From a virus (taxonomy: Duplodnaviria; Heunggongvirae; Uroviricota; Caudoviricetes): 16,884 nt of DNA. Below the pieces are notes generated by a model, which did no database searches, was not told the DNA's origin, and worked only from the letters and a program-made list of their open reading frames with translations. The stretch lies in IMG/VR virus record IMGVR_UViG_2675903366_000007; one strand, given 5' to 3'. This document shows, piece by piece, positions 14,553 to 16,839 of this stretch (position 1 is the stretch's first letter; every line of letters starts with the position of its first letter). The position numbers and the translations under genes were made by a program.

Positions 14553-15227
14553 ATGAAAACAATCCATGACATCCGGCGGTCTAACGCCAGAAAACTGAGA
14601 GATGGTGTTGGCGGAAATTCATCCTTTGCCACCATGATTGATCGCGAGCCTACCCAGACCAGCAGGTTTATGGGGGATGGCGCTACTAAAAATATCGGTG
14701 ACAGCATGGCACGGCACATCGAAAAATGTTTCGACCTGCCTGTCGGATGGCTTGATCAAGAACACCAGACAACGAACATCACAAAAAAACCTGATGTTTC
14801 AATCACTAATAAAAAAATAACGTTAGTCCCTGTCATATCATGGGTACAGGCCGGAGCATGGAAAGAAGTTGGCTATTCTGAGGTTGATTTGAGCACAACA
14901 GAAACGTATCCCTGCCCTGTACCCTGTGGCGAAATGACTTATATATTGAGGGTGATTGGTGATTCAATGATTGATGAGTACCGTCCGGGAGACATGATTT
15001 TTGTCGATCCAGAAGTACCAGCCTGCCACGGCGATGACGTTATTGCATTGATGCACGATACAGGTGAAACCACCTTCAAAAGGTTGATAGAAGACGGGAC
15101 ACAGCGTTATCTCAAAGCATTAAACCCCAACTGGCCTGAGCCTTACATTAAGATAAACGGTAATTGCTCTATCATTGGTACAGTTATTTTCTCAGGAAAA
15201 CCAAGAAGATACAAAATTAAAGCCTGA
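14553..15227 (+). CDS. cI: CI-type prophage repressor (HTH plus S24 LexA-like autopeptidase)
   Basis: C-terminal S24 domain has an Ala-Gly cleavage site (VQAGAW), the Ser of GDSM and the Lys of TFKRL. The N-terminal domain is HTH-like. Divergent from cro. Confidence 0.9.
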   Translation: MKTIHDIRRSNARKLRDGVGGNSSFATMIDREPTQTSRFMGDGATKNIGDSMARHIEKCFDLPVGWLDQEHQTTNITKKPDVSITNKKITLVPVISWVQAGAWKEVGYSEVDLSTTETYPCPVPCGEMTYILRVIGDSMIDEYRPGDMIFVDPEVPACHGDDVIALMHDTGETTFKRLIEDGTQRYLKALNPNWPEPYIKINGNCSIIGTVIFSGKPRRYKIKA

Positions 15228-15239
15228 TCAATGTCTATG

Positions 15240-15263
15240 AACCTGCTTCGGCAGGTTTTTTTA
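15240..15263 (+). terminator. Intrinsic terminator after cI
   Basis: AACCTGC-TTCG-GCAGGTT followed by TTTTTTAT. Confidence 0.8.
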
Positions 15264-15266
15264 TAC

Positions 15267-15299
15267 TTGACAATGTACCCTGTAGGTACATAATGTACC
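15267..15299 (+). promoter_or_regulatory. pL-like promoter with overlapping OL operator(s)
   Basis: TTGACA (15267-15272), 16 nt, CATAAT (15289-15294). The perfect operator ATGTACC-CTGTA-GGTACAT (15273-15291) fills the spacer and -10. A further ATGTACC half-site lies at 15293-15299. Confidence 0.65.
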
Positions 15300-15371
15300 T
15301 ACATAAGATATCGAACAGGCAGGACGCCCACGAAGTAGCCGTCCGGGGCATACGAAGACCGGAATGATTCG

Positions 15372-15400
15372 TAAATAAAAAAGCGCCCAAATGGACGCTT
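15372..15400 (-). terminator. Intrinsic terminator of the small minus-strand ORF (weaker in the plus direction)
   Basis: The minus strand reads AAGCGTCCATTTGGGCGCTT followed by TTTTTATTT. On the plus strand the same hairpin is followed by CACTTTT. Confidence 0.65.
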
Positions 15401-15422
15401 CACTTTTGAACTGGATTTATAA

Positions 15423-15632
15423 TCAATTATTTTCTTCATAAATGTTTTGTAATGTATTTATGAGATTTGGTATTTCTTTTATGGGAAAAGAATATATTGG
15501 ACTTTCGATAATTTTATCAGATTCAAATGGTGGTTGTTTGCAGGACAGTTGAACTATAACTGAATTATGATCTTTAACTGGCACACAGTACCAACCACAT
15601 ACATCAAAAACAGGAGTATTTTGATTATCCAT
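15423..15632 (-). CDS. Hypothetical 69-aa protein in a low-GC island beside cI
   Basis: ATG at 15632 (MDNQNTPVFDVCGWYCVPVKDH...) follows GAGGA by about 5 nt. It has its own terminator and lies convergent with cI. The track start at 15665 is a TTG. Confidence 0.5.
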   Translation of the reverse strand: MDNQNTPVFDVCGWYCVPVKDHNSVIVQLSCKQPPFESDKIIESPIYSFPIKEIPNLINTLQNIYEENN

Positions 15633-15930
15633 TATGTCCTCGACAACTAAAAACACTGCGTACAAAACTCAAAAGCAGGGAGTTATTTATAAAATTTCAT
15701 AAAGAATAATTACCGATAGCGACAATTCATTGTTCTTGAATTTTGAAAAATAGCAAGACAAAACAATGTAAACTTATTTAAAAAAACTTCTTATTATGTA
15801 AACAAAACAACCAATTCGTTATATAGGAAAAACAAATAGTACACAAGAAAATATTCAACAGGGGTATTACATTCAACCATAAGAGTAATCGTCTCTTTGG
15901 TAACTAATACCGAACATTTTATTGTAACAC

Positions 15931-16340
15931 GGCGTATGGCACATGCGTCGTTAGCGGTCTGGGGACGTTAAAGGGGACAATCCACTCCTTGCTCGGGCAA
16001 ACAAACCAGGTAGCCGGAATGTGCAAGTCAATGATGATGCTGATAAGACGCCTAACCAGCGTGGCGATCCGGTTTGACGCCTGGGAAGAGACCAGGGTGC
16101 AACGATGAGGGTATTTATGGAGCCGCGACAAAGTGTGGTGCCGTAACTGGCTAAGTGCTCTCAGCGTTGTGGTAATCCGCGAAATGGCGCGGCGGTAAGT
16201 ATGGCGGGGTTACTCTTTCCCCGTTGAGGACACCGGATTGTCAGGTTGACCATACGCCTGAGTGACAACCCCACCACAACAGCCACTGCTTTGGCGGTAC
16301 CAGTTTGTACACTTGCTTCCGGCTGGTACCGCTCTTTTTA
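15931..16340 (+). ncRNA. Candidate structured noncoding RNA, about 0.4 kb (hypothesis only)
   Basis: A GC-rich stretch with stops in all six frames follows an AT-rich island. A candidate promoter is TTGGTA (15897-15902), 17 nt, TATTGT (15920-15925). The 5' GGCGTATGG (15931-15939) is complementary to CCATACGCC (16250-16258). Several local hairpins occur within it. It ends at the 16294-16340 terminator. Confidence 0.3.
16294..16340 (+). terminator. Intrinsic terminator (tL-like) whose tail resembles boxA
   Basis: GCGGTACCAG (16294-16303) pairs with CTGGTACCGC (16323-16332) around a 19-nt loop, followed by TCTTTTTA. The string CGCTCTTTTTACAA resembles boxA (lambda CGCTCTTA, rrn GCTCTTTAACAA). 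Confidence 0.55.
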
Positions 16341-16428
16341 CAAAACAGAGAAGAGCATCACCGGACGACGGGCTCATAACCCAATCCATCCGGGCGGCAG
16401 CCACCGCAGGTGTTCTTCTCTGTTTTGT
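16340..16428 (+). promoter_or_regulatory. Long 18-bp stem enclosing two small hairpins (leader structure of the early-left gene)
   Basis: ACAAAACAGAGAAGAGCA (16340-16357) pairs with TGTTCTTCTCTGTTTTGT (16411-16428), 17 Watson-Crick pairs plus one G-U. Inner hairpins are CCGGA/TCCGG (16361-16365 with 16389-16393) and GCGG/CCGC (16394-16397 with 16404-16407). Confidence 0.5.
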
Positions 16429-16476: not shown

Positions 16477-16839
16477 ATGGCTAGCGAACGCAGTACTGAT
16501 GTGCAGGCATTTATCGGGGAGCTGGACGGCGGCGTATTTGAAACCAAAATCGGCGCAGTTCTCAGTGAAGTCGCTTCCGGTGTGATGAACACGAAAACCA
16601 AAGGTAAGGTCTCACTCAACCTGGAAATCGAACCATTTGATGAGAACCGTGTGAAAATCAAACACAAACTCTCATATGTTCGCCCGACTAACCGCGGGAA
16701 AATTTCCGAAGAAGACACTACCGAAACGCCGATGTATGTCAATCGCGGTGGTCGCCTGACTATTCTGCAGGAAGACCAGGGACAGTTACTGACTCTTGCC
16801 GGTGAACCTGACGGAAAACTCCGCGCAGCAGGTCGTTAA
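16477..16839 (+). CDS. Conserved prophage early-left protein, function unknown (120 aa)
   Basis: AGGAG (16465-16469) lies 7 nt before the ATG at 16477 (MASERSTDVQAFIGELDGG...). An in-frame ATGATG at 16459 is an alternative start. The part of the track ORF upstream of these is noncoding leader. I have a vague, unverified memory of YfdP-like proteins of E. coli CPS-53. Confidence 0.75.
   Translation: MASERSTDVQAFIGELDGGVFETKIGAVLSEVASGVMNTKTKGKVSLNLEIEPFDENRVKIKHKLSYVRPTNRGKISEEDTTETPMYVNRGGRLTILQEDQGQLLTLAGEPDGKLRAAGR

Follow-up and report, generated by a model that had tools for sequence, protein, structure and literature searches.

What does the GC-rich, non-coding block upstream of yfdP encode in a lambdoid prophage of Escherichia coli? 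We examined this question in a 16,884-nucleotide (nt) stretch of viral DNA (IMG/VR record IMGVR_UViG_2675903366_000007; the whole stretch is referred to here as the window), which covers the early region of such a prophage, of the e14/cdtI/Ayreon type. A preliminary description, made from the sequence of the window alone, had proposed that this block is a discrete or structured noncoding RNA (ncRNA), an element like the cis-acting put RNAs of phage HK022, or the decayed remnant of a gene. Our analysis supports the ncRNA option, in the form of two modules rather than one. In our assessment, positions 15929 to 16339 of the plus strand probably specify an ncRNA precursor that consists of a new structured RNA, a precursor small RNA (pre-sRNA) of the DicF family, and a terminator, with processing like that of dicF in the Qin prophage.

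Comparison with homologues identifies the first module, at 15929 to 16172 on the plus strand, as a strongly conserved structured RNA of approximately 245 nt with five helices, undescribed so far. We seeded the set of homologues with an exact 19- to 22-mer of the structured RNA and computed a consensus fold on 21 sequences chosen to be <93% identical pairwise (alignment A5). In this fold, 98.7% of the 944 pair cells are paired. Compensatory changes among homologues from related prophages, which the preliminary description had named as a check on its RNA option, are present: 16 of the 45 pairs have changes on both sides. None of 500 shuffled controls scored as high as the observed alignment on any measure, and sliding the partners by 1 to 3 columns left only 30 to 45% of the cells paired. 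A tally of the pair table gave 114 G.U cells (approximately 12%) compared to 12 nonstandard cells, which indicates that the fold belongs to the plus strand. The minimum free energy (MFE) z-score of the whole segment is -2.17 for the plus strand and -1.31 for the minus strand; support for structure comes from comparison rather than from thermodynamics.

The 5′ domain of the structured RNA (15929 to 16097, plus strand) was delimited from A5, a second alignment (A4), and pair counts. Helix P1 is a local hairpin (15930 to 15938 with 15942 to 15950) in which all the covariation lies in the lower stem (G-C to A-U in nine sequences) and the apical UGGCACAUG is almost invariant. Helix P2 (15955 to 15961 with 16007 to 16009 and 16013 to 16016) encloses variable hairpins and changes from U-A to C-G in 10 sequences. 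An invariant 19-nt stretch, GGTAGCCGGAATGTGCAAG, occupies 16009 to 16027, and the invariant single-stranded stretch of the A5 consensus reads GGUAGCCGGAAUGUGCAAG. Helices P3 (16027 to 16029 with 16063 to 16065) and P3a (16048 to 16051 with 16059 to 16062; loop CTAACCA in the window) present a 7-nt loop with the consensus Y-U-(A/C)-ACCA, which is followed by a conserved linker, GCGAUNCGGUKUGAC. Helix P4 (16080 to 16084 with 16092 to 16096; loop GAAGAGA) is the CCTGG/CCAGG hairpin that had already been noted at 16080 to 16096, and it covaries. The last helix, P5, is a long hairpin with a variable apical insert (16098 to 16116 with 16153 to 16171), in which 7 of the 17 pairs carry compensatory changes. 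Throughout the RNA, junction and loop nucleotides are invariant, helices covary, and helix tips vary freely. RNAs with complex folds and invariant junctions usually bind something specific, and the combination of invariant junctions and loops with covarying helices seen here would indicate a specific tertiary fold of this kind.

Two long-range pairings did not withstand comparison across homologues. The preliminary description had paired GGCGTATGG at the 5′ end with CCATACGCC downstream; the complementary letters are present, but the pairing is not conserved. The 5′ copy sits in the local covarying hairpin P1 at 15930 to 15950 (G-C to A-U in 9 of the 21 sequences), the 3′ copy sits in the apical loop of a hairpin in the DicF-type leader described below, and this leader is unlinked to the core in phage P1 and is present without the core in Qin. 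We also rejected a long-range GCACAU/AUGUGC helix, which RNAalifold predicted from close relatives only, because local hairpin P1 wins when diverse sequences are used; the 6-nt complementarity is kept as a possible candidate pseudoknot.

Searches of existing collections did not place the structured RNA in a described family. Rfam 15, another check named in the preliminary description, gave no match over 15929 to 16172 at gathering score, and the matches at E ≤ 10 (E of 1.6 to 6.7) were far below thresholds. No known ribozyme family in Rfam matched the RNA. Over the same positions, ARAGORN found no tRNA or transfer-messenger RNA genes, and the Rfam tRNA model was negative. The invariant sequence had no match in a full-text literature search, and searches for sRNAs at yfdP/yfdQ and for phage P1 ban returned a study of E. 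coli K1 by Sun et al. (2020) alone.

The second module, at 16165 to 16339 on the plus strand, is, judging by sequence, homologous to the DicF precursor of Qin, which is 190 nt long. Positions 16155 to 16288 are 87% identical (116/134) to positions 2741 to 2874 of the Qin locus (L155), and positions 16166 to 16272 are 93% identical over 107 nt to 2752 to 2858. In K-12 Qin, dicF itself (2883 to 2935 of L155) lies directly 3′ of the leader-matching sequence. The phage P1 ban operon also holds a leader homologue, which overlaps an annotated “dicF-like region.” In the window, the DicF-type leader (16173 to 16289, plus strand) has the helices CCGCG/CGCGG, CGGU/ACCG, GGG/CCC, and GUUGUCA/UGACAAC. Among the hairpins listed for this part in the preliminary description, CCGCG/CGCGG (16177 to 16192) is invariant across all DicF-leader homologues, whereas GACA/TGTC (16229 to 16242) is supplanted by CGGU/ACCG and GUUGUCA/UGACAAC, both of which carry compensatory changes. 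The listed CGGGG/CCCCG hairpin stands in its inner part, GGG/CCC (16207 to 16209 with 16219 to 16221), which is predicted and invariant; its outer pair changes on both sides (CUGGG/CCCAG in phage P1-type rows).

The leader is followed by a DicF-like sRNA body with an intrinsic terminator (16290 to 16339, plus strand). The terminator had been recognized from the start, and it has a perfect 10-bp stem (16294 to 16303 with 16323 to 16332) followed by TCTTTTT, forms the MFE hairpin, and can be aligned with that of DicF. A simple terminator scan missed this stem on account of its 19-nt loop; its T-run, the U-run of the transcript, lies at 16335 to 16339. The sRNA and terminator part aligns with DicF at 71% (gapped alignment), and UUUGGCGGUAyCAGUUU is common to both. 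The sRNA bodies of the window, Qin, Citrobacter, and phage P1 types have little in common beyond CCAGUUU (UCAGUUU in Qin).

A relative of this module is already known by another name. In E. coli K1 RS218, Sun et al. (2020) described a 193-nt RNA, sRNA-17, as a new virulence sRNA under ArcA control; this RNA was mapped by rapid amplification of cDNA ends (RACE), was detected by Northern blot, belongs to an mEp460-type prophage, and rises in level in stationary phase (PMC7719688). Using the published primers (Table S2 of PMC7719688), we placed sRNA-17 upstream of yfdP on the plus strand of the window, with its start, CGTTGTGG, at 16165 and its end at the 16339-side terminator. The window and sRNA-17 are identical at this start and over the last ~70 nt, including the terminator. 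They differ in the middle ~100 nt, where RS218 has its own leader and the window has a Qin-type leader, and the full segment is 85.6% identical to the mEp460 type, with insertions or deletions (indels). The authors’ “degenerative sRNA-17” class includes sequences with a Qin-type leader like that of the window, and the authors drew no link to DicF (PMC7719688).

The published assays also bear on the structured RNA. The “sRNA-17 promoter” fragment used in ArcA gel shifts (20 to 80 μM protein; PMC7719688) is the structured RNA module, corresponding to 15917 to 16169 in the window; any promoter inside this fragment is putative. The sRNA-17 amplicon used in quantitative reverse transcription PCR (qRT-PCR; PMC7719688) extends from the 5′ end of the structured RNA into the leader. 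Because this amplicon spans both, the structured RNA and the leader are co-transcribed, and because its forward primer lies at the 5′ end of the structured RNA, the reported oxygen and ArcA regulation was measured on the precursor.

The two modules meet at helix P5, which by analogy with Qin is likely to be an RNase III substrate. From the dicBp transcript of Qin, RNase III generates the 5′ end of a 190-nt DicF species and RNase E produces a 53-nt species; both accumulate in stationary phase (PMC10448788). Counting back 190 nt from the DicF 3′ end in Qin leads into the 3′ strand of a long P5-like hairpin, and the RACE 5′ end of sRNA-17 (CGTTGTGG, 16165) falls in the basal helix of P5. Given that both ends fall in P5-type hairpins, we infer that P5 is the RNase III site that separates the structured RNA from a pre-sRNA of ~175 nt. 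P5 is also one copy of a repeated type of “punctuation” hairpin. Its frame, ACAACRGRUAAGAGCAUU ... AGUGCUCUYNNCGUUGUGG, recurs as a free-standing hairpin, with further copies at 16340 to 16428 in the window and at three sites in the phage P1 ban operon (plus strand), and with a weak profile match in mEp390.

We determined how widely the structured RNA occurs and what surrounds it. In IMG/VR, at least 120 contigs contain the exact 22-mer CCAGGTAGCCGGAATGTGCAAG. Among GTDB species representatives, the 19-nt core of this 22-mer identified 23 genuine loci, plus one chance match; the hosts are Kosakonia, Phytobacter, Citrobacter, Klebsiella, Kluyvera, Enterobacter, Buttiauxella, Pseudescherichia, Pseudocitrobacter, Superficieibacter, Erwinia dacicola, and Escherichia spp. 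One of the 23 loci is on a contig of a metagenome-assembled genome labelled Bacillota, and this contig looks misbinned. Overall, the structured RNA is present in at least 12 genera of Enterobacterales and in 1,833 of 5,426 complete E. coli genomes (1,474 at ≥80% coverage), or approximately one-third, with phage P1, lambdoid phages, and epsilon15-like phages (phiV10/SPN1S-type) as carriers. In E. coli, 554 places are on plasmids, the listed ones being partial phage P1-type matches, and the others are chromosomal. Among the listed E. coli records, nothing is annotated over the structured RNA except an adjacent tRNA-Arg.

The blastn matches indicate that the segment is a mosaic. Counting from its first nucleotide, nt 1 to 172 match phages P1, P7, D6, and SJ46 at approximately 78 to 88%, nt 8 to 251 match phiV10/TL-2011b-type phages at approximately 82%, nt 85 to 194 match SPN1S, Tyrion, and mEp390, and nt 245 to 367 and 370 to 424 match further sets of phages. 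We surveyed 141 non-identical contexts of the structured RNA. In approximately 70, the core is followed by the DicF-like module, the second hairpin, and then yfdP, and lies 3′ of a cI-like repressor gene; in lambdoid phages from various genera and with various immunity types, the element is just 3′ of a same-strand cI-like or DicA-like repressor gene (identified with Pfam). The core is followed by tRNA-Arg in 28 contexts and preceded by a tRNA(CAU) a few nt upstream in 22 (phage P1 ban-operon type), and the remaining 20 have other arrangements. In phage P1, the element is 2.3 kb into the ban operon, between trnI (tRNA-Ile2, anticodon CAU) and ban, 8 nt past the tRNA; in phiV10-type phages, the core runs directly into the 5′ end of the tRNA-Arg gene. 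Thus, a same-strand tRNA gene abuts the element at a fixed distance in 50 of the 141 contexts. The element invariably has the same orientation as the tRNAs and genes that flank it, and it is always bounded by a processing signal, either a tRNA end or a P5 hairpin. These arrangements characterize the structured RNA, at the sequence level, as a portable module in which a tRNA gene replaces P5 as the boundary in other phages.

Some of the surveyed loci have features of their own. At a phiV10-type locus (L004, 2742 to 2897), the structured RNA and tRNA-Arg are followed by a terminator hairpin (2862 to 2897), GGCGGTGATGG...CTATCACCGCC CTTTTTACAG. As we read it, this hairpin resembles a DicF-type terminator, and the tRNA would be in the place of the DicF leader. 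In Escherichia whittamii (L131, ~1380 to 1800), the structured RNA lies 3′ of a gene for a 137-amino-acid HTH_3 repressor, taken as DicA-like, and is followed by what appears to be the 3′ half of a tRNA (T-arm CCCGGTTCGATTCCGGG plus acceptor strand). The P5 insert of the epsilon15-like phage SPN1S (L127) contains two T-arm-like hairpins; the P5 inserts of SPN1S and L093, together with one phage P1 hairpin, carry near-canonical T-arms.

The other punctuation hairpins can be described separately from the precursor. The copy at 16340 to 16428 (plus strand) occupies the interval between the terminator and yfdP, and its frame stems covary in the Kosakonia and Pseudescherichia homologues. Its tip displays CGGGCTCATAACCC (16369 to 16382; also written CGGGCUCAUAACCC), which, with its three G-C pairs and CAU loop, we take to correspond to the anticodon stem-loop of E. 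coli initiator tRNA. Approximately 40 distinct homologue contexts, two phage P1 ban-operon sites among them, retain this motif with loops of the CAU type, and the hairpin might serve as a decoy or as a tRNA mimic with a regulatory role. In phage P1 (AF234172; L003, 1480 to 2080, plus strand), the three P5-type hairpins lie 3′ of tRNA-Thr in the ban operon, and their tips are a perfect T-arm, GGGTTCGAATCCC, in one and GGGKTCATATCCC in two. They overlap or adjoin plp and upl, genes annotated on the opposite strand, and it may be worth re-examining how these two genes are annotated.

In many cases, GTGGTGAATGC and a small hairpin, GCGCA-GGCTGA-TGCGC, come after a P5-type hairpin; the small hairpin covaries (GCACA...TGTGC in phage P1, L003 ~1800 to 1835 and 2060 to 2090). 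The same unit is also found 3′ of dicF in Qin (L155 ~2955 to 2990), and the window has GTGGTAATCC in its place at 16166 to 16175. This unit may be a further reusable boundary or processing element. A small open reading frame (ORF) that starts at GGTGAATG after P5-type hairpins was considered and rejected as a general feature: it is present in mEp460 and phage P1, it is absent from the window (which has GGTAATCC), and the GCGCA...TGCGC hairpin that follows it covaries.

Upstream of the precursor, the window contains a cI-like repressor gene (14553 to 15227, plus strand; Peptidase_S24 domain in Pfam) and its terminator (15239 to 15258). A strong pL-type promoter, TTGACA-16-CATAAT, was detected by promoter scan directly after this terminator (15267 to 15294, plus strand), which is the place of pL in phage lambda, and the phage Ayreon record has an annotated promoter at the equivalent position. 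Between the promoter and the structured RNA lies an AT-rich stretch of approximately 630 nt (15295 to 15921; 27 to 34% GC) that is absent from Ayreon and cdtI. Homology with the insert-free phages cdtI, Ayreon, and mEp460 starts at 15922, which is ~45 nt past the promoter in Ayreon; therefore, 15295 to 15921 is a lineage-specific insert. It contains an 80-amino-acid ORF without a Pfam family (15423 to 15665, minus strand) and the terminator of that ORF (15401 to 15380, minus strand), and is a typical moron, antisense to pL transcription and specific to the lineage of the window. In relatives without it, the pL-type promoter is ~46 nt upstream of the structured RNA.

This insert also accounts for the abrupt change in composition that the preliminary description had reported: GC content rises at approximately 15920 from 0.27 to 0.52 to 0.55, and the non-coding, GC-rich block extends from the end of the insert to the terminator (15922 to 16345). 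The promoter proposed earlier at this border, TTGGTA-17-TATTGT, matches at 8 of 12 positions, falls under the scan threshold, and straddles the insertion junction; it was not confirmed. The first downstream protein-coding gene is yfdP (16477 to 16839, plus strand; no Pfam family), as annotated by RefSeq in E. coli 377323_2f, whose prophage is essentially identical and has yfdP, yfdQ, and yfdR downstream. The K-12 CPS-53 prophage, the namesake locus of yfdP, is without the entire segment. In Ayreon (L001, 3784 to 3972) and mEp460 (L006, 213 to 401), C4 antisense RNA and isrK RNA were detected above the Rfam threshold, in a region annotated as “immunity region” in Ayreon and as Rha in mEp460. 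Neither RNA had an Rfam match in the window; therefore, its pR-side immunity module differs from that of Ayreon and mEp460.

We propose a model that builds on the homology, structure, strand, and contexts described above; what it says about cleavage positions in this phage and about any function of the upstream RNA is conditional. The 15929 to 16339 precursor would be the first product of the early-left (pL-type) transcription unit. RNase III would cut at the base of P5, splitting the structured RNA from the ~175-nt pre-sRNA, and RNase E would trim the pre-sRNA to a short terminator-hairpin sRNA that acts in trans by base pairing. Because the loop sequence of the window sRNA differs from that of DicF, its targets are probably different as well. 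The terminator at 16294 to 16339 would also limit transcription into yfdPQR. Given that the upstream RNA is independent of neighboring genes and is flanked by processing signals, it would be an excised, portable RNA. It could well be a stable RNA that acts in trans by binding a host macromolecule, and we put this forward tentatively. A somewhat more speculative suggestion is that 15929 to 16097, with or without P5, belongs to a new class of RNAs with complex folds (ribozymes, RNAs that bind RNA polymerase or an RNase, or anti-defense decoys). It would be accompanied by punctuation hairpins that are likely RNase III substrates and display tRNA pieces at their tips, which would suggest a set of phage RNAs directed against host systems that target tRNA or translation.

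Several observations weigh against the proposed precursor or limit its reading. The Rfam DicF model (RF00039, threshold 48 bits) has no match in the window even at E ≤ 10, whereas Qin dicF, the positive control, scores 76.7 bits. The window sRNA body is thus a diverged DicF variant, and the term “DicF-like” rests on leader homology and synteny. Predicted duplexes between the whole sRNA and the ftsZ leader region (-80 to +40) are no better than shuffles (z = -0.50 for the window), a comparison that is uninformative even for DicF (z = -0.84); by eye, AGUUU is kept in the window sRNA and CUCCG is not. In the structured RNA, the GCACAU and AUGUGC stretches hardly vary, apart from a C-to-A change that a few sequences carry without compensation. 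A pairing of the P3a loop (UCACCA) with a 3′ tail (UGGUGA) was rejected, as no correlated change was seen by eye and phiV10-type RNAs are without the tail. The 630-nt AT-rich insert, with its convergent ORF and hairpin, separates pL from the RNA in the window, where the RNA may be transcribed only by read-through or from a weak promoter at the junction. The 96-fold increase in yfdP after sRNA-17 deletion (PMC7719688) is hard to interpret: judging by the primers used for the deletion, the mutant retains the terminator arm, and it may still contain a resistance cassette. Finally, the analyses here point to no partner or activity for the upstream RNA.

We considered whether the conserved sequence reflects a protein or a DNA element instead of an RNA. 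An intact ORF in homologues, which the preliminary description had named as evidence against an RNA, is found in part: the window and several homologues have a minus-strand frame that is free of stops over the entire core, and GenBank records annotate hypothetical proteins over the core (mEp460_037-type; mEp460, cdtI, and UTI89). However, no frame is open across the whole segment, as had been noted earlier, and the open minus-strand frame differs, is broken, or is absent in many genera. The minus-strand ORF at 15919 to 16131 has no codon periodicity among homologues, with variable columns distributed 36/35/36 over the codon positions in A4 and 57/57/54 in A5 and with flat entropies; groups of homologues are set apart, by eye, by indels of 1, 2, and 4 nt. 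Together with the 16 compensatory base pairs and the absence of any feature over the RNA in the Prokaryotic Genome Annotation Pipeline (PGAP) annotation of the listed E. coli genomes, these data make a protein gene remnant, decayed or still intact, very improbable, and we reject that option of the preliminary description. A DNA-level element, such as a single-strand initiation signal or a recombination “boundary,” would fit the mosaic segment, in which module borders coincide with recombination breakpoints between phage types, and the position before the helicase gene ban in phage P1. We find this scarcely credible, given that the orientation always matches the flanking tRNAs and genes, that a spanning RNA was amplified by qRT-PCR and its 3′ neighbor was seen on a Northern blot (PMC7719688), that G.U pairs, which would be destabilizing in DNA, make up ~12% of the cells, and that the element is continuous with a known sRNA precursor.

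If the upstream module is an RNA, it might act in cis. The put-like option of the preliminary description holds that it acts on RNA polymerase so that transcription reads through the DicF-type and later early-left terminators, replacing N. Consistent with this, the element is the first past a pL-type promoter in lambdoid phages that represent three or more immunity types, with 46 to 48 nt from the predicted start to helix P1 in Ayreon and mEp390 (two immunity types); a strong intrinsic terminator separates it from yfdPQR; and its invariant junction and loop nucleotides are as expected for a macromolecule-binding surface. On the other hand, blastn and nhmmer found no match better than E = 0.5 in HK022 22000 to 32000, where pL/putL and pR/putR are expected, and an nhmmer profile of the element (run with --max) found no second copy in the 16.9-kb window, which covers the cro/pR side. 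Its five helices in ~245 nt also differ from the two stems of put in ~70 nt. The phiV10/SPN1S-type unit consists of the core, tRNA-Arg, and terminators within ~250 nt, which leaves little to antiterminate; the phage P1 copy is deep in the ban operon, right after a tRNA; and in Qin, which has no such structured RNA, transcription continues past the DicF terminator to dicB (PMC10448788). Overall, a put-like function is quite unlikely. The upstream RNA might alternatively be a self-processing or processing-guide element, either a new self-cleaving ribozyme or an RNase scaffold, that sets tRNA or sRNA ends. The fixed distance to tRNA genes in 50 of the 141 contexts, the constant bounding by a tRNA end or P5, the invariant junctions with covarying helices, and the placement independent of neighboring genes all fit this idea, but no known ribozyme family in Rfam matches, and no cleavage site can be deduced from the sequence. 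We regard it as unlikely. A self-processing or cis-acting role is thus less likely in our view than a stable RNA that acts in trans.

If the ncRNA precursor is as proposed, then sRNA-17 is a DicF-family precursor whose 5′ end was most likely generated by RNase III. Its supposed promoter is a conserved structured RNA, and the regulation and deletion phenotypes need another interpretation. In addition, phage P1, upstream of ban, and approximately one-third of complete E. coli genomes carry an unannotated, covariation-supported RNA of ~170 to 245 nt, which is a concrete target for biochemistry. More generally, the early regions of temperate enterobacterial phages may carry trains of ncRNAs (structured RNA, tRNAs or tRNA-like tips, and DicF-type sRNAs) in which the modules are parted by reusable processing hairpins and gene callers overlay spurious “hypothetical proteins.”

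The arrangement in the window can be compared with known systems. It shares with dicF of Qin the position 3′ of a repressor of the cI/DicA type and of the associated pL/dicBp-type promoter, the ~115-nt leader (87 to 93% identical), the long hairpin where RNase III makes the 5′ end, the motif UUUGGCGGUAyCAGUUU, a 3′ end formed by an intrinsic terminator (hairpin and U-run) with further genes after it, and, for the homologue sRNA-17, accumulation in stationary phase. It differs from Qin in that the terminator-hairpin body is 71% alignable with gaps, has another loop, and has no covariance-model match; the predicted ftsZ-pairing stretch (AGUUUUACUCCG) is not conserved; and ydfABC occupy in Qin the place of the structured RNA. 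With HK022 put, a ~70-nt RNA of two stem-loops (PMC9378689), the element has in common that it is a cis-encoded structured RNA 3′ of pL, with a terminator downstream, in a lambdoid phage showing no N gene. Like put, it lies just past the pL start in Ayreon and mEp390, and in the window the 630-nt insert comes between. The put RNAs suppress termination in cis by acting on the β′ zinc-binding domain of RNA polymerase. In contrast to put, it has no sequence similarity to that RNA, is larger and differently built, is present in a single copy rather than downstream of both pL and pR, and also occurs outside early operons, in phage P1 and phiV10-type phages.

Phage ncRNA clusters provide the remaining comparison. 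The tRNAs and the “dicF-like region” of the phage P1 ban operon are, like the modules in the window, structured RNAs and tRNAs that are co-transcribed and parted by processing signals, and the element itself abuts tRNA genes in phage P1 and phiV10-type phages. The tRNA cluster of phage T4, with its stable species 1 and 2 RNAs, is a further phage ncRNA cluster. The element in the window differs from the members of such clusters in that it is not a tRNA, as judged by ARAGORN and the Rfam tRNA model, and it matches no described stable phage RNA.

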